A DNA stretch of 64,000 nucleotides from contig DATLQX010000141.1 of the NCBI GenBank assembly GCA_035534995.1, positions 11,424-75,423 of the forward strand, in the 5' to 3' direction. Shown here piece by piece: positions 10,136 to 38,868 of this stretch. Made by a program: the position numbers and the translations under genes. Position 1 is the stretch's first letter; every line of letters starts with the position of its first letter. The notes under the pieces were generated by a model that was not told where the DNA came from, did not search any database, and was given only the letters and a program-made list of their open reading frames with translations. Source of the DNA: Chloroflexota bacterium (lineage in GTDB: Bacteria; Chloroflexota; UBA5177; JANWHV01).

Positions 10136-10327
10136 ATAGTAGCCGTGGTGCCTACGGCTATAGCCGGTGACCCACCGCCACAGCCGGAGGTATCGACCCA
10201 GCCCCCGCACGCGGGCCACACCAATTCTTGCTATCCTTACCGGCACGAGACCCGACGAGGCCGCGGAGGTACCAACTTGTCATAAGGTTGGGGGGAGGGT
10301 TGCGGCTCAGGGTTGAGGAGGCACGCC

Positions 10328-13300
10328 ATGCCGGAACCGAGCGAAAAGCTGTCCACGTTTGACCATCTGGTAGTGATTGGGTCATCTGCCGGTGGGATTA
10401 CGGCCCTCTCCACCCTGGTGGCCACCTTGCCGCTGGATTTCCCCGCCCCCATCGTGATCGCCCAACACCTCGATCCATCCCGGGCCAGCCATCTCGGTGA
10501 GATTCTGGCCCGCCGCAGCACGCTGCCGGTGCGCATTCTGACCGAGCACGAAGCACTGGCTCCTGGCGTGGTCTTCGTGGTTCCCTCCAACCGCAATGTG
10601 GAAATCACCGATCACGCGGTTCGTTTGAATACTGAACTGGTCGGGCGCTCGAAGCCGTCGGTCGATGTTTTGTTGAGCACCGCCGCCGCGCTGTTTGGCG
10701 AGAATCTGGTCGCCGTTATCCTTACCGGCAGCGGCTCGGATGGGGCGGCAGGTGCTCGGGCCGTGAAGGCGGCCGGCGGCACGGTGGTGATCCAGGATCC
10801 CGAGACGGCTGAGTTTCCCTCCATGCCCCGAGCCTTGGCGCCGACCTCGGTTGATGTGGTGTCCAGCCTGGAAAACATGGGCGCCGTGCTGTACACCCTG
10901 GTGACCGGCGTGAAGGCGCCGCGCGCATCACAGGATGAGCGCGCGCTTGGCGCGGTGCTGGCGGAGGTGCGGACCCGGCAGGGGCTGGACTTTACCCGTT
11001 ATAAGATGCCCACCATCCTCCGCCGCGTCCGCCGGCGCATGGCCGCGACCGGCACGACCACGCTCTCGGCCTATCAGTCGTATCTGCTGGAACACCCAGG
11101 CGAAACCCCTCGCCTGGTTAACTCGTTGTTGATCAACGTCACCGAGTTTTTCCGCGATCCAGCGCTCTTCGAGCATCTCCGGCAGCATGGGTTGCCGGAT
11201 ATTCTCGCGCTCGCGCGTGCGCAAGGTACCGACCTGCGCATCTGGTCGGCGGGCTGCGCCACCGGCGAGGAAGCCTACTCGCTGGCCATCTTGATCGCGG
11301 AAATGCTCGGCCCCGACCTGGAGCAAGTGACGGTCCGCTTGTTCGCCACCGATGTCGATGGCGAGGCGATCACCTTTGCTCGCCGCGGTATCTACCCGGC
11401 CGCCGCGCTGACCTCTCTGACCCCGGCGCTCATTGAGCGCTACTTCATTCCGATCGACGGGGCCTTCGAGGTGAGCAAACGCATCCGTGGGCTGATCGTC
11501 TTCGGCGAGCATGATTTGGCGCAACGGCCGCCGTTCCCGCGCATTGACCTGGTGCTGTGCCGCAACGTGCTGATCTATTTCACCCCGGAATTGCAAACCC
11601 GGGCTCTTCGGCTTTTTGCCTTCGCCTTGCGCGATCGCGGCTATCTGGTGCTTGGCAAAGCGGAGACACCTCGGCCTTTGAACGACTACTTTGAATGCGT
11701 GGACTCTTCCCTCAAGATCTACCAGCGTCACGGCGCGCGCACGGTGCTGCCGCCTACCTGGAGTAAAGAGGCGACAGCGGTTGCCGTGCCCCGAGCTCGG
11801 ACGAACGGACATCGGCCGGAAGAATTGTCGGCCCTGGAGAGCCCGGGCCCGGCGGAGGTTGATCCCGACCACGCGTTAGAGGAGCCGCCGGCCGGCGCCA
11901 CTCAGGACGGCTTGCTGGACGATATTCCCCTTGGCGTGGTGGTGGTGGATCGGCGCTACGACATCCTGACTATTAACCGTGCCGCTCGGCTACTTCTCGG
12001 TGTCTACCACGAGGCGATTGGCGAGGATTTGATCCACCTGGCCCAGAGTTTGCCGGGCCCTCTCTTGCGGGCCGCTATTGACGCGGCGTTCCGCGATGGT
12101 TCATCGACTCGCCTGGACCAGGTGGTGCCGGTCGTCCTGGCCACCGGAGAGGAACGCAGCCTGGAAATTACCTGTCGGTCGGTTCAGTTGAATACCCCAA
12201 ACTGGGAAGCTCCAACCGTGATGATCCTGCTCAACGACCATACGGCGGCCGAGCAGGCCAGAGCCAGTCAGGAAGACGAAATAGCGCGTTTGACGGCGCG
12301 GGTGCGGGACATGGCGCAGGCCAATCAGGCCCTGCTGGCCGCCAACGCGGCGCTCACTACTGCCAGTACGGCCCTACGCCAAGACACCGTGGAGGCGCGG
12401 GCTGATACGGCGGACGCGCAAGCCCAGACCGAGGAGGTGATCACCCTCAACGAGGAGTTGCAAGCTACCAATGAGGAGATGGAGACCCTCAACGAGGAGT
12501 TGCAAGCCACCATCGAGGAGGTGGAGACCGCGAACGACGAGCTTGATTCCCGCAGGCTGTCTCTGATAGACCTCAACTCGTCAATGGAGACCGAGCGCGC
12601 GTACCTCGAACTCATTCTCGGGAGCATCGGCGATGCCGTGCTGGTGGTGGATATTAACGGGACGTTCACCAGGACCAATGCCGCCTACGACGCGTTGTTT
12701 GGCCAGAATACCACGACGATGGTGTTTCTGGATGAGCAGGGAAATCAATTACCGTACGCCGCATTGCCGAGACATCGCGCGGCGTCCGGGGAGACATTCA
12801 ACATGGTATTCCGATCGAACGCCGCCGACGGAACCCAGCATTGGTTCGAGGCCAATGGGCGGCCCCTGCTGACTCCCGATGGAGGGCGCCATGGGGTTGT
12901 GGTGATCCGCGACATCACCATGTTTACCCAACATCAGCGGCTGCAGGACGAGTTCCTCTCGCTGGCCAGCCATGAACTGCGCACCCCGCTCACCTCCGTT
13001 TTGGGGTATCTGGGCATGCTTGAGCGAGGCCTACGCGATCCCATCGGCAACGAACGCTTGCGAGGATTCGCCGCCAAGGCATTGCACGAAGCGGAGCGCC
13101 TGGTTCTCATGGTGCGAGATCTCACCGATGTTTCACGCTTGCAATCCGGCAAGCTCACCCTGGACCGGAAGCCGCTGGACTTCGCGGCGCTGATCACGCA
13201 AGTGGTCGAGCTAGCCCGGGATCTGCCGCCCGGTCACGCTATTCACCTTGAGACGGCTTCGGGGCCGATGACCATTTATGGTGACGCGATGCGGCTTGAG

Positions 13301-13645
13301 CAAGTGCTCTTCAACATCTTCACCAACTCCATGTTCCACGCTCCCAGCGACCGACCCATTGAAGTGCGGCTTCAACGCCTGGATGGCGGCGTCCACCTGG
13401 AAATAGAAGACCATGGGCGAGGGATCGCTCCCGATCAATTGCCGCGCCTTTTCTCGCGCTTTTACCAGATTGAGAATTCCGAATGGGCCTCTCGCCAGGG
13501 GATGGGCCTTGGCCTGTTCATCTGCAAGGAACTGGTCACCGCGCATGGCGGCCGGATCGAAGTCGCCTCCACCGAAGGCGAGGGCACGACTTTCACCGTG
13601 TGGCTGCCGCTGTCGGAGGCGGGAGCGGGGGTGGAGGGTACCTAA
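10328..13645 (+). CDS. Multidomain CheB methylesterase - CheR methyltransferase - PAS - coiled coil - PAS - histidine kinase fusion
   Basis: CheB triad context VVIGSSAGG / IAQHLD / TGSGSDGAAG. CheR SAM site IWSAGCATGEEAYSLAI. LNEELQATNEEMETLNEELQATIEEVE coiled coil. HisKA SLASHELRTPLTS. HATPase DHGRGI...GMGLGL. GAGGAGG precedes the ATG at 10328. Confidence 0.9.
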   Translation: MPEPSEKLSTFDHLVVIGSSAGGITALSTLVATLPLDFPAPIVIAQHLDPSRASHLGEILARRSTLPVRILTEHEALAPGVVFVVPSNRNVEITDHAVRLNTELVGRSKPSVDVLLSTAAALFGENLVAVILTGSGSDGAAGARAVKAAGGTVVIQDPETAEFPSMPRALAPTSVDVVSSLENMGAVLYTLVTGVKAPRASQDERALGAVLAEVRTRQGLDFTRYKMPTILRRVRRRMAATGTTTLSAYQSYLLEHPGETPRLVNSLLINVTEFFRDPALFEHLRQHGLPDILALARAQGTDLRIWSAGCATGEEAYSLAILIAEMLGPDLEQVTVRLFATDVDGEAITFARRGIYPAAALTSLTPALIERYFIPIDGAFEVSKRIRGLIVFGEHDLAQRPPFPRIDLVLCRNVLIYFTPELQTRALRLFAFALRDRGYLVLGKAETPRPLNDYFECVDSSLKIYQRHGARTVLPPTWSKEATAVAVPRARTNGHRPEELSALESPGPAEVDPDHALEEPPAGATQDGLLDDIPLGVVVVDRRYDILTINRAARLLLGVYHEAIGEDLIHLAQSLPGPLLRAAIDAAFRDGSSTRLDQVVPVVLATGEERSLEITCRSVQLNTPNWEAPTVMILLNDHTAAEQARASQEDEIARLTARVRDMAQANQALLAANAALTTASTALRQDTVEARADTADAQAQTEEVITLNEELQATNEEMETLNEELQATIEEVETANDELDSRRLSLIDLNSSMETERAYLELILGSIGDAVLVVDINGTFTRTNAAYDALFGQNTTTMVFLDEQGNQLPYAALPRHRAASGETFNMVFRSNAADGTQHWFEANGRPLLTPDGGRHGVVVIRDITMFTQHQRLQDEFLSLASHELRTPLTSVLGYLGMLERGLRDPIGNERLRGFAAKALHEAERLVLMVRDLTDVSRLQSGKLTLDRKPLDFAALITQVVELARDLPPGHAIHLETASGPMTIYGDAMRLEQVLFNIFTNSMFHAPSDRPIEVRLQRLDGGVHLEIEDHGRGIAPDQLPRLFSRFYQIENSEWASRQGMGLGLFICKELVTAHGGRIEVASTEGEGTTFTVWLPLSEAGAGVEGT

Positions 13646-33032: not shown

Positions 33033-35276
33033 ATGTACACCAAGCGTGCTCTCGGAACGGCGGTGGGAGCCCTTGCTCTCACGGCCGGCCTCCTCGGTCC
33101 CTACGCCCACCCTACCGCCGCCCAACCCGCGGCGAAAACCCGCGCGACCGCGGCGCAATACAGCCTCCAGAGGATTTCCAGCCCCAACGATCCCACCTTT
33201 ACCCAGTTGCTCGGGATCAATGATCAAGGGAGGATTGCCGGTTATTTCGGGAGCGGCCAGACGGTAAATGGCGATCTTCACCGCAACCAGGGCTTTACTC
33301 TCCGTTTGCCGTCCAGCTTCAAGGCCGAGAACGTGCCCCACGCGGCCCAGACGCAGGTCATCGCGATCAATAATCATGGCGACACCGCCGGCTTCTACAT
33401 TGACCACCAGGGGACGACCCATGGATTCCTGGAATCCGCTGGCCGTTTCCAACGCGCGGATCGGCAAGGGATGCCGTTTAATCAAATCCTCGGGTTGAAT
33501 GATCACGGACAAGCAGTGGGGTACGATCAGGATGCCCAGGGACACGATCATGCCTATATTCGTGACCGGCATGGAAGATTTACCCTGCTTCCGCTTACCG
33601 ATAGCCAGGCGACCGGGATCAACGACGCGGGGACGGTTGTGGGCTTTACCCAGCCATCGGCTGCCACATCGGCCGGGTTCATCCTCGAGGGTGGCCTCCT
33701 GAGTCTCCTCATCTATCCGGGATCGGCCTTTACCCAGGCCCTGGGCGAGAATACGTCGGGGCAGGTAGTTGGTTTTTACCACGATGGCGCGGGAAACTCG
33801 CACGGATTCATCTATGACACACACGCGCGGACCTTCCAGACGGTGGACGTGCTGGGCGCGTCCAGTACGACCCTGAATGGGATCAATAACGCCGGCCAGG
33901 TAGTTGGCTTTTTCACGGATGCCAACGGGAATACGGTCGGTCTGGTGGGCACGCCTGGTAGCGGCCAAACGGGGACAACGTCGACCGCGACCGCCACGCC
34001 AACCGCCAGTCCTAGCGCGTCGCCGACCGCGACTCCCACCGCCACGTCGACCATGACCAGCACCCAAACCATGAGTTCCACCATTAAGATTGGGCTGCTC
34101 TTGCCGTTCAGCGGCACGAATGCCGCACAGGGGCTCTCGGCCGAGCAGGGAGCGCAATTGGCGGTGAATCAGGCGAACGCGGCGAACCTGGTGCCTGGGG
34201 TCAATTTCGTACTCTCGGCCAGGGATGATCCCGGGAGTGCCAATGCACCAGGAAGCGATGCTAACCTTCAGGCCCTTACCAACGACCCGGAGGTAGCCGG
34301 GATCATTGGCCCCTTTGACACCACCACCGGTCGTGTCGAACTGCCGCTTGCCAATAAACTGGACGTGGCTCTGGTCAGCCCCTCGGCCGGCGATCCCTGC
34401 TTGACCAGCAGCGACGTCGCGGCCGGCTGCATCGGGAGCCCCTTTACTCTCGCCTCCGTGCGCCCAACCACCAATCTTACCTTCTTCCGTATCATCCCTA
34501 CCGACCCGAAACAGGGTATGGCGCTTGCCGACTATTTGTATAAGGTGCGGCATTTCCTCACTGCCTACGTCGTGGATGACACCGGTGCCTATGGCATCGG
34601 CGTGGCGAACGCCTTCAGTAGCGAATGGCAGTTGAATGGCGGAGTGGTGGTCGGACGAACCAGTGTGCCTGAAGGAACTGCCTCGTTTATCAACCTGCTG
34701 ACCCACATCGCGGTGGCACGCCCAGACGTGATTTTCTTCGGGGGCAGCGACCCGGCGTCGGGCTCCCCCGACAGTATCGCCATTCGCCGGCAAATGCTCC
34801 AGGTTCCTTCGCTAAAAGACACGGCTTTTGCCGGTGGAGATGGGATCGATACACCTCAGTTCGCCCAGGCGGTTGGTGCGTTTGGCGGGCCAGTCTGGAG
34901 CACGCTCACCCCTGCCGACCCCGCGGGCGTACCGGGGGCAAGCGCCTTCGTGGCACAGTATCAGGCCGCGTTCGGCGCCCCCGGCCGGTACAGCGCGAGC
35001 GGGTACGACAGCGCCAATGTTCTGCTCACGGCCATCGCCGCCGCCTTCAAGAAGGGCGCCCAGACACCAAGCGGCCCCGGCGCCGCGACGGAAGCAACGG
35101 CACTCCGCCAGATGGTGGTGGCGAACGTGGCGTCCACCTCGCTGGTTGGCGTGACCAACCCGGTCAGCTTTTCCCCTACTGGCGATCTCACCGAGGGCTT
35201 GATCAGCATCGAGCAACTTGGGAACGTGAATGGAGCACCTGGCTGGCAGCCGGCGGCGATCCAGAAAGTGCGATAA
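33033..35276 (+). CDS. Secreted fusion: HAF-like repeat (six repeats) - Thr/Pro linker - type I periplasmic binding protein (LivK / Peripla_BP_6-like)
   Basis: Six repeats of GIN(D/N)xGxxVG(F/Y)...HGF. Linker TSTATATPTASPSASPTATPTATST. Then IKIGLLLPFSGTNAAQGLSAEQGAQLAVNQANA...GIIGPFDT..., typical of Leu/Ile/Val-type binding proteins. Confidence 0.8.
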   Translation: MYTKRALGTAVGALALTAGLLGPYAHPTAAQPAAKTRATAAQYSLQRISSPNDPTFTQLLGINDQGRIAGYFGSGQTVNGDLHRNQGFTLRLPSSFKAENVPHAAQTQVIAINNHGDTAGFYIDHQGTTHGFLESAGRFQRADRQGMPFNQILGLNDHGQAVGYDQDAQGHDHAYIRDRHGRFTLLPLTDSQATGINDAGTVVGFTQPSAATSAGFILEGGLLSLLIYPGSAFTQALGENTSGQVVGFYHDGAGNSHGFIYDTHARTFQTVDVLGASSTTLNGINNAGQVVGFFTDANGNTVGLVGTPGSGQTGTTSTATATPTASPSASPTATPTATSTMTSTQTMSSTIKIGLLLPFSGTNAAQGLSAEQGAQLAVNQANAANLVPGVNFVLSARDDPGSANAPGSDANLQALTNDPEVAGIIGPFDTTTGRVELPLANKLDVALVSPSAGDPCLTSSDVAAGCIGSPFTLASVRPTTNLTFFRIIPTDPKQGMALADYLYKVRHFLTAYVVDDTGAYGIGVANAFSSEWQLNGGVVVGRTSVPEGTASFINLLTHIAVARPDVIFFGGSDPASGSPDSIAIRRQMLQVPSLKDTAFAGGDGIDTPQFAQAVGAFGGPVWSTLTPADPAGVPGASAFVAQYQAAFGAPGRYSASGYDSANVLLTAIAAAFKKGAQTPSGPGAATEATALRQMVVANVASTSLVGVTNPVSFSPTGDLTEGLISIEQLGNVNGAPGWQPAAIQKVR

Positions 35277-35480: not shown

Positions 35481-36041
35481 ATGACTGAAGTTGAGCGCTC
35501 CCTGGAATCCTTGCGCGCCCGCGTCGCGGTCCTGGAGACGGAGAACGGCCGGCTTCGACAGGCGAGTCCCGGCGTGGAGGCGGCTGGACGCGAGCTGCCT
35601 CGACGGTCGCTTCTGGTGGCCGGCCTGGGGCTCCTGGGAGCCGCCGCCGGCGGTGAGATTCTGGCTCAAGGACAGACCGCCCTCGCGGCCGGGGACGGCT
35701 CCTCCGCCGGATCATCCACCCTGGGATCCGCGGTGATCGGCGCCCAGTTTCGCCAACCCAAGCTCCTGGGCATGCGGGTGGCTCTGCGGGGCCAGCGGAG
35801 CAGTATGGCGACCTTTGCCCGCTACGAGTGGTCATTCGGGAAGCAGTTTACCGACAGGCAGCCGCCGATCGTGCTGGCATCGGTCCTTGATCCGGCCCTG
35901 AACGTCCTCCCCGGTGACGCGCCGGTCTGCTCGGTGTTTGTCTACGGCAGCCCAGGGGCGTACGCCGCGATGATCACCGTGCACAACCTGGGTGACGCCA
36001 CTCCTACGGTTGAAGTGAATTTGCTCGCGTTCGGCGGCTGA
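35481..36041 (+). CDS. Hypothetical anchored protein: N-terminal coiled coil, RR-containing TM/TAT-like segment, C-terminal beta domain (H-type-lectin-like is a guess)
   Basis: AAGGAGGG SD. LESLRARVAVLETENGRLRQ; RRSLLVAGLGLLGAAAGG; C-terminus YEWSFGKQFTDRQPPIVLASV...VCSVFVYG...YAAMITVHNLGD...VEVNLLAFG. Confidence 0.55.
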   Translation: MTEVERSLESLRARVAVLETENGRLRQASPGVEAAGRELPRRSLLVAGLGLLGAAAGGEILAQGQTALAAGDGSSAGSSTLGSAVIGAQFRQPKLLGMRVALRGQRSSMATFARYEWSFGKQFTDRQPPIVLASVLDPALNVLPGDAPVCSVFVYGSPGAYAAMITVHNLGDATPTVEVNLLAFGG

Positions 36042-36050
36042 TCAGGGCGC

Positions 36051-38264
36051 TTATTCCAGCCACCAGGACTGGAGGCAGGTAGCACGGGGGACCATCCCCG
36101 TATCGGCGAGCGTGTCACCGCCATGTCGGCACACGCTCAAGGTGGAGACCCGGCCCGACGGCGCCTGGAGCACGGCCGCCGAGGAGCTTTCATATAACGG
36201 ATTTTCTCCCATACGGTACGCGGAGGTAGCGGCCCCTTCGAGAAGCCAGGCGCTCACCACCGGCGCGCCCATCGCCAGATCGGCGCCAAACGGACCCGCC
36301 ACGCCATCATTGGCATACAGCTCCGTCCTATAGCCGACTACCGCATGGAGGCCGCCAAAGACAGGCAGCCAATCGCGGTACGGCGCCGTCGTATCCTCGG
36401 GCGAGGCGATCAGGGACGGGGTGCGCGCCACCCAAAACGCCAGTCCGGCTTGCTTCCCTCTCGCGCCGCCCAATGCGCCCAGACTGGCGACGTTCACAGC
36501 CCCGCCGGTATAGCGGTCAGTGATAAAGTGCCCCTGGCCACCCGGTGCCTCCGATTCCAGGACTCGCGCGGTGTTCGCGTAGGCGGCAAAGTTCCGGGCG
36601 GTGGTGAAGGCGGCCGGGGTGGAGGAGGGTCCGATCCTTCCGGGCGCTCCCGCCAGGCCCTGAAGTCTGGGCCAGAAGGACAGGACTCCCTGCTGGAAGG
36701 CCAGGGAGTCCTGGTGCCAGGCCGGCATCGGTCCCTGGACCACGAACCGCGCGATCCCATCACTGTCTAGATCAGCCGGGCCGGCGGAGCGACTGCTCGC
36801 GGCGATGGTTGGTCCCAGGGTAGGCAGTGGTTCCGGCTCGCGGGCCGCCACCGGCTCATAGCCGATGACGTGATCGACGGCCACGCCGCCCGCGTGAACG
36901 GAGGCGGTGAAGCGATAGGCCGGTTCGAGATAGGATTGGTTTCCGTCGTAATAGGTGAGAGCGATGCTGTCGAGCGTGACCGGTAGGCCGGCGCCGACCG
37001 TCGCCAGTTGGGCCTGGATCGATCCGAGCACATCGCCGGCTGGGCGCGGCGTCAAGAGGAATCCCGCGAGCACGGCGGTACGCCAGCTACGGATATAGCC
37101 TTGGAGGGAACCATCAGGCCCGAGCACGAGTGCCGCCCGCGATCCCGGGCCGTAGACGGGGAAGACTCCTACCCTCCGAGCCACCGGGAAGAAGATCAGT
37201 CTGGTGCTCCTGGTTCCGGGCCGCTGGCCCGACGCCAAGGTGCCGGCAAACAGCGGCTGCGCCAACAGGCTCTTGGTCGCGTCACGAGGAATCAGGGCGC
37301 TGGTGCCCAGAACGGCTTGAGCCGCTTGCGTTAGCCGCTCGATCGGGGCCATGGTTGGACCAGCAGCCGGGAGGACGGGAAAGACGGCGCTATCGCCGGT
37401 TTCCCAGTCGGCATACGCTACTAAGCGCGTTCCATCGTACCCGGCAACGATGTGCGTTCCGTGCTGGTCCGGGATAGTCATGATCCTTGCGCGCGGTGAC
37501 AGCCGATCGAGCTGGCCGAGCATAAAGTTGAGTGGCGGCGCCGTGCGGACGAGGCGATAGATAGGCAAGGGACCGCCGATCGCGCGGAAGGTGGGTGGCA
37601 CGCTGGGGACGGGAGTCGCCGTCGCTACTGCCGTGGAAGAGGCGATGGGAGAGGCGAGCGAGGCTACCGTGCTGGTGGCGGATGCCGGGACGGTTGGGGT
37701 GGCTGTAATGGTAGGGGTAGGGGTATCGGTATCGGTATCAGTGGGGGTCAGGGTAACGGTCGCGGTCACGGCGATCGTTTCGGTAACGGTAGGGGTAGCG
37801 GTCGCGGCAACGACTACGGTGAAGGGCGCCGAGGGACTGAGATCGCCCACGCGCACGATAAAGAGGTGTTGCGGTCCTGGCAGGGCGCCGGCCGGCACCT
37901 GCTCGGTCACGGAAGCCCCCGTGCAGTCGGCGCCGAAGCCGAGGGTGGGCGCGGCTCCTGGGACGCCGGTGCAGGCTGCCAGCTTCTGGGTATCGATCGG
38001 CGAACCAGTGTCAAAGACGATGGCGGCGGTCAGGCCCTGCTGCCCAAGGGTCGGGTCGAACCCGACGGCGCTTAGGGACACGGAACTGCCCGGAAGGCCG
38101 GATTGTGGCTGCACGGTGATGGTGGGGCCCGCCGCCGCGTGGACGACAAGCGGCACGCCGCCGCGGTTCATGGCATCCGGTGCCCCCAAGGACGCCAATA
38201 GCAAGGCCAGCGAGGCAGTGAGGAGGCCGCGAATGTGCGTGCGCCGAAGCCCCATATTCCTCAA
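36051..38264 (-). CDS. Large secreted protein of unknown function (signal peptide, Ig-like N-domain, Thr/Pro/Asp linker, approx 500-aa unassigned region)
   Basis: 737-aa ORF. AAGGAGG lies upstream of the TTG/ATG start. LLTASLALLLASLGAP signal. Linker ATATPTVTETIAVTATVTLTPTDTDTDTPTPTITATPT. I recognise no family for the remainder. Confidence 0.7.
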   Translation of the reverse strand: MRNMGLRRTHIRGLLTASLALLLASLGAPDAMNRGGVPLVVHAAAGPTITVQPQSGLPGSSVSLSAVGFDPTLGQQGLTAAIVFDTGSPIDTQKLAACTGVPGAAPTLGFGADCTGASVTEQVPAGALPGPQHLFIVRVGDLSPSAPFTVVVAATATPTVTETIAVTATVTLTPTDTDTDTPTPTITATPTVPASATSTVASLASPIASSTAVATATPVPSVPPTFRAIGGPLPIYRLVRTAPPLNFMLGQLDRLSPRARIMTIPDQHGTHIVAGYDGTRLVAYADWETGDSAVFPVLPAAGPTMAPIERLTQAAQAVLGTSALIPRDATKSLLAQPLFAGTLASGQRPGTRSTRLIFFPVARRVGVFPVYGPGSRAALVLGPDGSLQGYIRSWRTAVLAGFLLTPRPAGDVLGSIQAQLATVGAGLPVTLDSIALTYYDGNQSYLEPAYRFTASVHAGGVAVDHVIGYEPVAAREPEPLPTLGPTIAASSRSAGPADLDSDGIARFVVQGPMPAWHQDSLAFQQGVLSFWPRLQGLAGAPGRIGPSSTPAAFTTARNFAAYANTARVLESEAPGGQGHFITDRYTGGAVNVASLGALGGARGKQAGLAFWVARTPSLIASPEDTTAPYRDWLPVFGGLHAVVGYRTELYANDGVAGPFGADLAMGAPVVSAWLLEGAATSAYRMGENPLYESSSAAVLQAPSGRVSTLSVCRHGGDTLADTGMVPRATCLQSWWLE

Positions 38265-38267
38265 AAT

Positions 38268-38296
38268 TGACCTCCTTGGTGTGGTAGAGTATAGAG
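38268..38296 (+). promoter_or_regulatory. Putative sigma70-type promoter of hcp (TTGACC, 17 nt, TATAGA)
   Basis: aaaaTTGACCtccttggtgtggtagagTATAGAgc. The -35 overlaps the SD (AAGGAGG on the minus strand) of the divergent 737-aa gene. A TATACT on the opposite strand overlaps the -10. Confidence 0.45.
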
Positions 38297-38388
38297 CATC
38301 CCGAAGCGAATAGGGATGTCACTACTCAATGATCGCGGCAGAATTCACTCCGGTTTGGGGTGGTGGATCGACCGAAGGAGGCAATAGG

Positions 38389-38868
38389 GTGGCATTCAAT
38401 GCCTATATCATCTTTGAAGGCGAAAAGCAAGGAAAGTTCAAGGGAGATTCGACCCTTGCCGCCCCGGCAGGCTCTTCTCGGCTGTTAGCGTACACGTACG
38501 AGGTGACCTCCCCGCGTGATATCGCCTCCGGTTTGCCCACCGGCAAGCGCATGCATAAGCCTTTCGTCATCCTCAAGGAGTGGGATGCCTCGTCCCCGCA
38601 AATGCTCCAGGCATGCGTCGCCAACGAAGTCCTGCGGGTAGTGACTCTTGCGTTTCATCGAACTACATCTTCTGGTGAGCAACAACTCTACCATACAGTC
38701 ACGCTCAGCAACGCCACCATCTCCAACTTGAAACAGTATGTCGCGGATCCAGTCCTCGCGGCGGAATACGACGCGGCTGATCTGGAGGAGGTTTCATTTA
38801 CCTACCAAAAGATCACGATCTCCTACACGCAAGGCAATAAGTCGGCGGTAGACGACTGGGAAGCCTAG
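38389..38868 (+). CDS. hcp: Hcp (TssD) family type VI secretion tube protein homologue, orphan
   Basis: GTG at 38389 with GAAGGAGG 6 nt upstream, giving 159 aa. VAFNAYIIFEGEKQGKFKGDS...YEVTSPRDIASGLPTGKRMHKPFVILKEWDASSPQMLQA...GEQQLYHTVTLSNATISNLKQY...EVSFTYQKITISYTQGNKSAVDDWEA parallels Pseudomonas Hcp2/3-type blocks (PRDPQSGQPTGQRVHKP..., FTYRKITW..., SDDW) as recalled. Confidence 0.85.
   Translation: MAFNAYIIFEGEKQGKFKGDSTLAAPAGSSRLLAYTYEVTSPRDIASGLPTGKRMHKPFVILKEWDASSPQMLQACVANEVLRVVTLAFHRTTSSGEQQLYHTVTLSNATISNLKQYVADPVLAAEYDAADLEEVSFTYQKITISYTQGNKSAVDDWEA

Follow-up and report, generated by a model that had tools for sequence, protein, structure and literature searches.

The window analysed here, a 64,000-nucleotide stretch of contig DATLQX010000141.1 from a Chloroflexota bacterium, contains hcp (tssD), a gene for the tube protein of type VI secretion systems (T6SS). 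It is divergently paired with a gene for a 737-residue protein of the DUF6345 family, and the far end of the latter gene faces p186, a third gene that the sequence-only reading of this DNA had left out. The trio is found only in about five lineages of Chloroflexota, represented by soil metagenome-assembled genomes (MAGs). We tentatively read it as a lineage-restricted module in which Hcp now serves, by exaptation, a function that is T6SS-independent and linked to two envelope proteins. The main elements of the locus are as follows.

38389..38868, plus strand: hcp (tssD), 159 residues, GTG start, no signal peptide; the stop codon ends at 38868
38374..38381, plus strand: Shine-Dalgarno sequence GAAGGAGG of hcp, 7 nt ahead of the GTG, as read from the sequence
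38284..38295, no strand assigned: candidate bidirectional promoter core or operator GTAGAGTATAGA in the 124-bp spacer (putative function)
38271..38275, minus strand: Shine-Dalgarno sequence GGAGG of the 737-residue gene, 6 nt ahead of its TTG start at 38264; the plus-strand CCTCC is invariant in five lineages
36051..38264, minus strand: 737-residue DUF6345-family protein, apparently exported, a predicted clan-CD pseudoprotease (Pfam, phmmer, models)
35481..36041, plus strand: p186, convergent with the 737-residue gene across a 9-bp gap, the third gene of the module

The hcp gene and its surroundings

Hcp forms hexameric rings that act as the tube of the T6SS and as a chaperone of its effectors. 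The 159-residue open reading frame (ORF) that starts with GTG at 38389 had been assigned to the Hcp/TssD family by its motifs. These motifs are present, and profile searches bear the assignment out: PF05638 (T6SS_HCP) matches with an E-value of 7.6e-27 and 94.6 bits (cut-off 23.5), and TIGR03344 (TssD) in NCBIfam with 126 bits (cut-off 58.9) over residues 1-158. At the sequence level, phmmer against the PDB retrieved Pseudomonas aeruginosa Hcp3 (3he1, 8e-24), followed by 6a2v, 5mxn/5ojq (the Vibrio cholerae tube), 5urw and 4hkh (1e-14 to 1e-16). Residues 47-151 also weakly match the chains of 7fcf, deposited as 'Fimbrial protein' (E 2e-4). Gene callers chose the same product on independent contigs, and an identical Hcp, labelled as coming from a Chloroflexota MAG, occurs on six contigs from independent assemblies (ENA, Logan and others), each time in the same context.

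In a search of 5.8 billion proteins, four close clusters were found besides that of the window, with 85, 72, 60 and 60% identity, all from Chloroflexota where the source is named. Among the best 120 matches, Hcps outside this clade are at most 48% identical to the window Hcp, a Chloroflexota label is attached to P0001-P0003 only, and no closer Chloroflexota paralogue is visible. Two of the outside Hcps were examined, P0012 (47%) and P0035 (44%). Each is encoded between tssC and tssE in a complete cluster of subtype i (T6SS-i), with the order TssK-L-M-A-B-C-Hcp-E-F-G, with or without ClpV and VgrG. Given that the outside Hcps are so distant and that the two examined lie in complete T6SS clusters, a horizontal origin is plausible, and the window gene descends from a canonical structural tssD of T6SS-i ancestry, most simply via horizontal transfer. 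The donor would most likely have been a diderm with a complete T6SS.

Substitution pattern and codon composition show a gene that is not in decay and was not acquired recently. The ratio of nonsynonymous to synonymous substitution rates (dN/dS) of hcp is 0.14-0.24 across five lineages, with dS up to ~2, and that of the neighbouring iclR gene is 0.10-0.13. The GC content of hcp is 0.55 versus 0.64 for the locus, while its GC content at third codon positions (GC3) is 0.66-0.73, near that of the host genes; the low overall value is due to codon positions 1 and 2, that is, to amino-acid composition. The ORF, the start codon and the Shine-Dalgarno sequence are intact in all lineages. As compared to the 115 nearest canonical Hcps, the core motifs SPRD.ASG..GKRMHKP, L.NA, FTYQKI and DDWE are kept, whereas two segments are replaced throughout the clade, a loop spanning residues 20-37 (SVTQKGRE... 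in canonical Hcps) and residues 144-151 (WTW..GGI in canonical Hcps). Thus, the window protein resembles the core TssD/Hcp of T6SS-i (3he1; tssD of loci L053 and L055) in its full-length profile match, its size (~160 residues for the core protein) and its core motifs, but differs from it in these two segments, in its identity of at most 48% to any Hcp outside the clade, in its Chloroflexota host, and in the lack of sheath, baseplate, spike and membrane-complex genes nearby.

The sequence-only reading had noted no other T6SS gene in the 64 kb, with which both a Pfam scan and tblastn agree. Among the ~45 ORFs of the window, Pfam detected no domain of TssA-M, VgrG, PAAR, ClpV, sheath, baseplate or phage-tail proteins, nor do the precomputed Pfam calls of the matching ENA contig contain any. 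Domains of the extracellular contractile injection system (eCIS) and phage-tail set (gp19-type tube, sheath, gp25, gp6/J, spike, AAA+ ATPase) were likewise not detected in these ORFs. Chloroflexi loci for phage-like protein translocation structures (PLTS) or eCIS carry gp19-type tubes, not Hcp (PMC4122934). When all core proteins of a complete T6SS cluster (locus L055) were used as tblastn queries against the window and 12 related loci, hcp was the sole match, and no T6SS or tail gene was found in the ~6 kb past the right window edge. The functions that are encoded around hcp are protocatechuate catabolism, ABC transporters, chemotaxis, two-component proteins, haem synthesis and the like. Literature searches on T6SS or Hcp function in Chloroflexota/Chloroflexi returned nothing relevant, and we know of no report of a T6SS in this phylum.

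The 737-residue protein and the DUF6345 family

The product of the divergent gene is composed of an apparent export signal, a lineage-specific N-terminal domain, a linker and a two-part C-terminal module.

38136..38264, minus strand: putative signal peptide region, residues 1 to ~31-43, with a basic n-region, the hydrophobic stretch GLLTASLALLLASLG and APDA / VHA cleavage-type motifs
37809..38135, minus strand: ~110-residue β-rich N-terminal domain, residues 44-152, with two conserved Cys, present in the Hcp-linked clade only
37593..37808, minus strand: Thr/Pro/Ala-rich linker, residues 153-224, from translation and alignment
36765..37592, minus strand: tandem α/β prodomain-like region, residues 225 to ~500, like YycI, EUBREC_2869 and the vibriolysin FTP-PepSY propeptide
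36054..36764, minus strand: caspase-fold (clan CD-like) domain, residues ~501-737, from model and Foldseek
36543..36545, minus strand: Pro574 at the catalytic-type His position of the family (family E[AV]HG, here EAPG), directly after a β-strand
36417..36419, minus strand: Pro616 at the catalytic-type Cys position of the family (family W[IV]IHSCEV, here WVARTPSL)

The segment at residues 44-152 had been called Ig-like. A conserved β-rich domain does lie there, but it has no Pfam or PDB sequence match, and the Ig-like label itself found no confirmation. The ~500 residues that follow the linker, left unplaced by the sequence-only reading, can now be assigned to DUF6345, as prodomains plus a caspase fold. 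The Pfam profile (PF19872) matches the protein marginally, with 27.4 bits against a cut-off of 26.9. A word-based search with all 737 residues was saturated by the low-complexity linker and gave 3 matches; an exhaustive phmmer search with residues 225-737 against 1.84 billion representatives was therefore used, and it yielded 231 relatives at E<1e-3, most of them 520-620 residues long and aligned end to end. The DUF6345 profile matches all ten family members that were tested (10/10). The layout of the family is thus a leader followed by a common module of ~510 residues.

An AlphaFold2 model of this module reached a predicted local distance difference test score (pLDDT) of 85.7 and a predicted template-modelling score (pTM) of 0.90. 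Its N-terminal half matches 5coz, 2o3o and 3nqy_A in Foldseek (YycI, EUBREC_2869 and the vibriolysin FTP-PepSY propeptide), and one family member shows a weak FTP match in Pfam. In a separate model of residues 500-737 (pLDDT 86), Foldseek matched the SAVED-CHAT structure 8tl0 (E 4e-5, probability 1.0), along with 'iotapain' (6nag), a secreted peptidase of family C11, the CHAT protein of Craspase (7y84) and caspase-3/-7 (TM-scores of ~0.45-0.5). Two motifs stand out in the family alignment by their sharp conservation: E[AV]HG[ND]W and W[IV]IHSCEV[IV]P. Mapped onto the model, the position of the His and that of the Cys each come after a β-strand, His ahead of Cys, which is the clan-CD arrangement. 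Among the 129 representatives covering both columns, the His is present in 122 and both residues in 120. On these models, DUF6345 proteins look like secreted clan-CD caspase-fold cysteine peptidases with tandem PepSY/YycI/FTP-like prodomains. This assignment of fold and predicted activity is a new annotation: literature searches returned no published function for DUF6345/PF19872, and the family profile gave nothing meaningful against PDB sequences, with no sequence-level match to a solved peptidase. Another candidate, GLHAVVGYRT as a papain-like catalytic His motif, was dropped; its His is moderately conserved (89 His, 25 Arg), the fold is caspase-like and the dyad lies elsewhere.

Throughout the Hcp-linked clade (the window, P0122, P0123, L012, L057 and L058), both dyad positions are occupied by Pro, and Pro occurs there in no other clade. 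Since both positions are Pro, the 737-residue protein is predicted to be a pseudoprotease, and its sequence points to a binding or scaffold function in the cell envelope that does not involve catalysis. The predicted fold is that of the secreted clan-CD peptidases (6nag, 8tl0, 7y84 and the caspases), with which the DUF6345 family also has in common a His-Gly after one strand and a Cys after the next; the window protein differs in its two Pro residues, so we do not file it as an active peptidase. In the models, the N-terminal half of the module resembles the FTP-PepSY propeptides of M4 peptidases and the YycI/YycH-type regulators, but in DUF6345 its partner is a caspase fold and not a thermolysin-like domain, and an inhibitor or foldase role is putative. 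c-FLIP, a catalytically dead homologue of caspase-8, is itself a pseudoprotease. The window protein is like c-FLIP-type pseudoproteases in that selection retains its fold although the nucleophile is gone, which implies a role in binding or regulation, but unlike c-FLIP it is bacterial, exported and unrelated in sequence. In its build, with prodomains ahead of a His-Cys domain, the family is like a secreted clan-CD cysteine-peptidase zymogen; this clade has lost the dyad and gained the N-terminal domain and the Thr/Pro linker.

On L057 (5304-6305), L059 and L061, the big gene is called with 333 residues. These calls are probably start-site miscalls on truncated contigs; tblastn aligns 412-524 contiguous residues there, with no stop codon.

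Conservation of the three-gene arrangement

The back-to-back arrangement of hcp and the 737-residue gene, with a gap of 124 bp (38265-38388), was described correctly by the sequence-only reading, as was the distance of 8 nt between the hcp stop (38868) and the end of the convergent iclR ORF (38877), whose product carries PF09339 and PF01614. The divergent pair recurs in every relative found, down to 59% identity for Hcp and 49% for the big protein. The trio, or the part of it that each contig spans, occurs in the window lineage and in those with 85, 72, 60 and 59% Hcp identity; p186 accompanies hcp and the big gene on every contig that extends far enough. L007-L010, the 85% lineage, have p186, the big gene, hcp and iclR in the order of the window. 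In the 72% lineage, the locus is split on two contigs of one assembly, which jointly carry p186, the big gene (732 residues) and hcp. In L012 (Hcp 60%, big protein 49%), a recG-like helicase gene, recognized from its translation, lies beyond hcp instead of iclR. In L013/L014 (Hcp 59%, big protein 49%, p186 56%), the trio is placed between an ISL3 transposase and a methyltransferase/MGMT pair. The flanking contexts are accordingly three: iclR/pca genes plus Peripla_BP_6 (three lineages), recG (L012), and ISL3 plus methyltransferase (L013). The ISL3-family transposase (two ORFs, L013 725-2038) abuts the 3' end of hcp and hints that the module or its flank has been mobile.

Hcp, the big protein and p186 diverge in step, with identities of 85/80/82%, 72/68/74% and 59/49-50/56-57%. 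All three genes evolve under purifying selection, with dN/dS values of 0.14-0.38 (hcp as given above, the big gene 0.21-0.31, p186 0.21-0.38), and dS has reached 1.4-2.0, that is, saturation, where the adjacency survives the exchange of both flanks. Each of the three genes forms 3-5 protein clusters. Dyad loss and the additional N-terminal domain coincide exactly with hcp and p186 in their narrow phyletic distribution.

The p186 protein begins with a conserved heptad-like, leucine-zipper-like helix (residues 1 to ~28), the sole database matches of which are GCN4-type coiled coils. Residues 40 to ~70 comprise an invariant PRRxLL, a Gly/Ala-rich hydrophobic stretch and then AxA. From its sequence, this segment reads either as an N-in membrane anchor or as a leader of the twin-arginine translocation (Tat) type, the n-region of which would be conserved and unusually long. 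The β-rich domain of ~100 residues at the C-terminus belongs to no known family: Pfam, PDB and PADLOC searches with p186 gave no family beyond coiled-coil noise, and hhalign detected no relation to Hcp or to the big protein. A suspected resemblance to H-type lectins got no support. p186 forms four clusters among the 5.8 billion proteins, and a metagenome scan with it added two loci, both from known lineages. The PADLOC models of defence systems gave no hit at E <= 0.1 with Hcp, the 737-residue protein or p186.

Within the 124-bp spacer, a 12-bp block, GTAnAGTATAGA (38284-38295), is invariant at 11 of its 12 positions in five lineages, while the other spacer sequence diverges. It contains two -10-like hexamers on opposite strands, TAGAGT (plus, 38285-38290) and TATACT (minus, 38288-38293). 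The overlapping promoters proposed by the sequence-only reading therefore stand in part: the opposite-strand -10 boxes fit the conserved block, but the TTGACC taken as a -35 box is not conserved, and a strict sigma-70 scan found no site. We infer that hcp and the pseudoprotease gene may be co-regulated from a bidirectional promoter. The hcp Shine-Dalgarno core GGAGG is kept in the three closer lineages. In the ~90-nt hcp leader (38296-38388, plus strand), a CUC at ~38325 may pair with the GGA of the Shine-Dalgarno sequence, forming a possible masking hairpin; this hairpin shows almost no covariation in the three sequences compared, and an Rfam search of the leader gave no match.

The link to Hcp is specific to this clade. 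A scan of one genome per GTDB species returned 38 DUF6345 loci (L015-L052), in bacteria (Acidobacteriota, Actinomycetes, Cyanobacteria, Armatimonadota, Ktedonobacterales, Alphaproteobacteria and Bacteroidales) and in archaea (Methanothrix and Bathyarchaeota); examples are L029 10001-11623 (Granulicella mallensis), L025 (Methanotrichaceae) and L026 (Bathyarchaeota). The distribution of the family over many bacterial phyla and two archaeal groups is patchy. At none of the 38 is a homologue of Hcp or p186 found within 10 kb of the DUF6345 gene. The genes with an intact dyad have no other conserved neighbours at these loci beyond overlapping-frame artefacts. Hcp is also absent beside P0124, the relative closest to the clade from outside it, and beside two other dyad-less members of the family, which lie on short contigs.

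A further exported protein of 747 residues is encoded at 33033-35276 (plus strand), directly upstream of p186 in three lineages. It is composed of a DUF3466-like repeat region, a Thr/Pro linker and a Peripla_BP_6 solute-binding domain.

Readings of a stand-alone Hcp

A genuine Hcp with no T6SS genes nearby, the persistence of the trio, the divergence of its products in step, the purifying selection on all three genes, the conserved intergenic block, the dyad loss in the DUF6345 protein and the specificity of the link to Hcp are the evidence for our tentative reading, that of a lineage-restricted module of soil Chloroflexota in which Hcp has been exapted to a task outside the T6SS and tied to two envelope proteins. 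Hcp itself is a known family, while a module that combines a stand-alone Hcp with p186 and a secreted clan-CD pseudoprotease is undescribed. As judged from these sequences, a T6SS-independent use of Hcp is plausible. The fuller version, in which these Chloroflexota have no T6SS at all and the captured Hcp now serves an envelope module as a T6SS-independent ring, a cytoplasmic holdase or export adaptor, is more doubtful. Since its probable capture, purifying selection has kept hcp, with no other T6SS gene nearby. In such a scheme, a cytoplasmic Hcp ring could act as a holdase or adaptor in the way that Hcp does for T6SS effectors; as a guess, it might have as its client either p186, bound by the conserved helix of its cytoplasmic N-terminus or by its Tat-type leader, or the other neighbour in its pre-protein form. 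Equally speculatively, the exported domain of p186 and the pseudoprotease would act jointly outside the membrane as non-catalytic binders.

Several points weigh against this exaptation. To our knowledge, no T6SS-independent function of Hcp has been described, every characterised Hcp being a T6SS tube or chaperone. The T6SS negatives span the ~70-kb locus and the related loci rather than the whole genome. Because three of the five lineages share a wider synteny, the evidence for linkage comes mainly from L012 and L013/L014. The three genes are separate transcription units, with p186 outside the shared promoter, and the strict scan left that promoter without a sigma-70 site. The signal peptide of the 737-residue protein was read by eye from the translation, as was the Tat motif of p186. 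Furthermore, since Hcp has no signal peptide and its neighbour is apparently exported by the Sec pathway, the mature proteins would reside in different compartments. This weakens the suggestion of the sequence-only reading that Hcp serves the secreted protein as its ring or chaperone partner, and direct contact of mature Hcp with either apparently exported neighbour is doubtful.

The gene could instead be an ordinary satellite hcp that feeds a T6SS or another contractile machine encoded on another contig, with its neighbours as accessory envelope components or cargo. We consider this rather unlikely, even though it accords with established knowledge of Hcp as T6SS tube or chaperone, with the strong purifying selection on a core that is otherwise canonical for Hcp, and with the orphan hcp genes beside effector genes that are common in Proteobacteria. 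The locus does resemble such orphan hcp-effector(-immunity) islands in that, going by the genes alone, hcp lies away from a main cluster and its neighbours are functionally unrelated, and in that p186 shares its small size and apparent export with many immunity proteins. However, the neighbour here is divergent, 737 residues long, preceded by a signal-peptide-like N-terminus and devoid of catalytic residues, whereas cargo of the Hcp lumen is small and has no signal peptide. The neighbour does not have the properties of Hcp-dependent cargo (cytosolic, small or fused to Hcp), and no Hcp fusion is present. Moreover, VgrG, PAAR and adaptor genes are lacking from the window, and DUF6345 genes in T6SS-bearing phyla are not Hcp-linked (0/38). 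The absence of core T6SS genes from ~70 kb and the related loci, the silence of the searched literature on T6SS or Hcp in Chloroflexota, the lack of a closer Chloroflexota paralogue among the best 120 matches, and the replacement of residues 20-37 and 144-151 in the clade all speak against a satellite gene.

It is unlikely that hcp works alone or with unknown partners and that its adjacency to the other two genes reflects inherited gene order or co-transfer as one island, with no functional coupling. The confinement of the trio to a single narrow clade, in which each gene is represented by 3-5 protein clusters, the wider synteny common to three lineages, the separate transcription units, and the ISL3 transposase abutting hcp in L013, which makes mobility of the block possible, would fit such uncoupled neighbours. 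Against this, the trio survives the replacement of both flanks at dS 1.4-2.0, the intergenic block is conserved far above its surroundings, and dyad loss, the N-terminal domain, hcp and p186 match exactly in their phyletic distribution.

The sequence-only reading had also considered a relic of horizontal transfer. The horizontal origin remains plausible on the identity of at most 48% outside the clade, but a functionless, decaying gene is highly improbable: the low GC content (0.55 versus 0.64) and the lack of T6SS partners nearby would suit it, whereas the dN/dS of 0.14-0.24 in five lineages, similar to that of iclR, the intact ORF, Shine-Dalgarno sequence and start codon, and the GC3 near that of the host, with the low GC arising from codon positions 1 and 2, reject it. 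An assembly or binning artefact, that is, a proteobacterial hcp joined chimerically to a Chloroflexota contig, might be suspected from the MAG source and the slightly atypical composition of hcp, but is ruled out by the same context on six independently assembled contigs, with the same junctions in ENA, Logan, JGI and NCBI assemblies and in diverged relatives, and with intergenic sequence conserved on both sides.

In the accepted view, Hcp is an obligate component of the T6SS tube. If the exaptation proposed here is true, an Hcp ring can be recruited for another cellular task, and this would be the first Hcp acting outside contractile injection; a module that works without a T6SS would offer a tractable three-gene system for finding the new task of Hcp. 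The analysis also identifies a naturally dead branch of the DUF6345 family. The module is very rare, being confined to a handful of soil MAG lineages, which limits its significance.

Two further features of the window lie outside the module. The segment 38877-51568, which begins with iclR, is a catabolic island for protocatechuate/4-hydroxybenzoate and is syntenic in three lineages. For regulation and transport it encodes IclR and an ABC transporter of the Peripla_BP_6 type that includes two ATPases and two permeases. Its enzymes are pcaIJ-like CoA-transferase subunits, the α and β subunits of protocatechuate 3,4-dioxygenase, a Lyase_1 protein (pcaB-like), a hydrolase (pcaD-like), a CMD protein (pcaC-like) and an FAD monooxygenase (pobA-like). 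Finally, a polypeptide of 1110 residues (10313-13645, plus strand) fuses a CheB methylesterase, a CheR methyltransferase, PAS domains, HisKA and HATPase_c.

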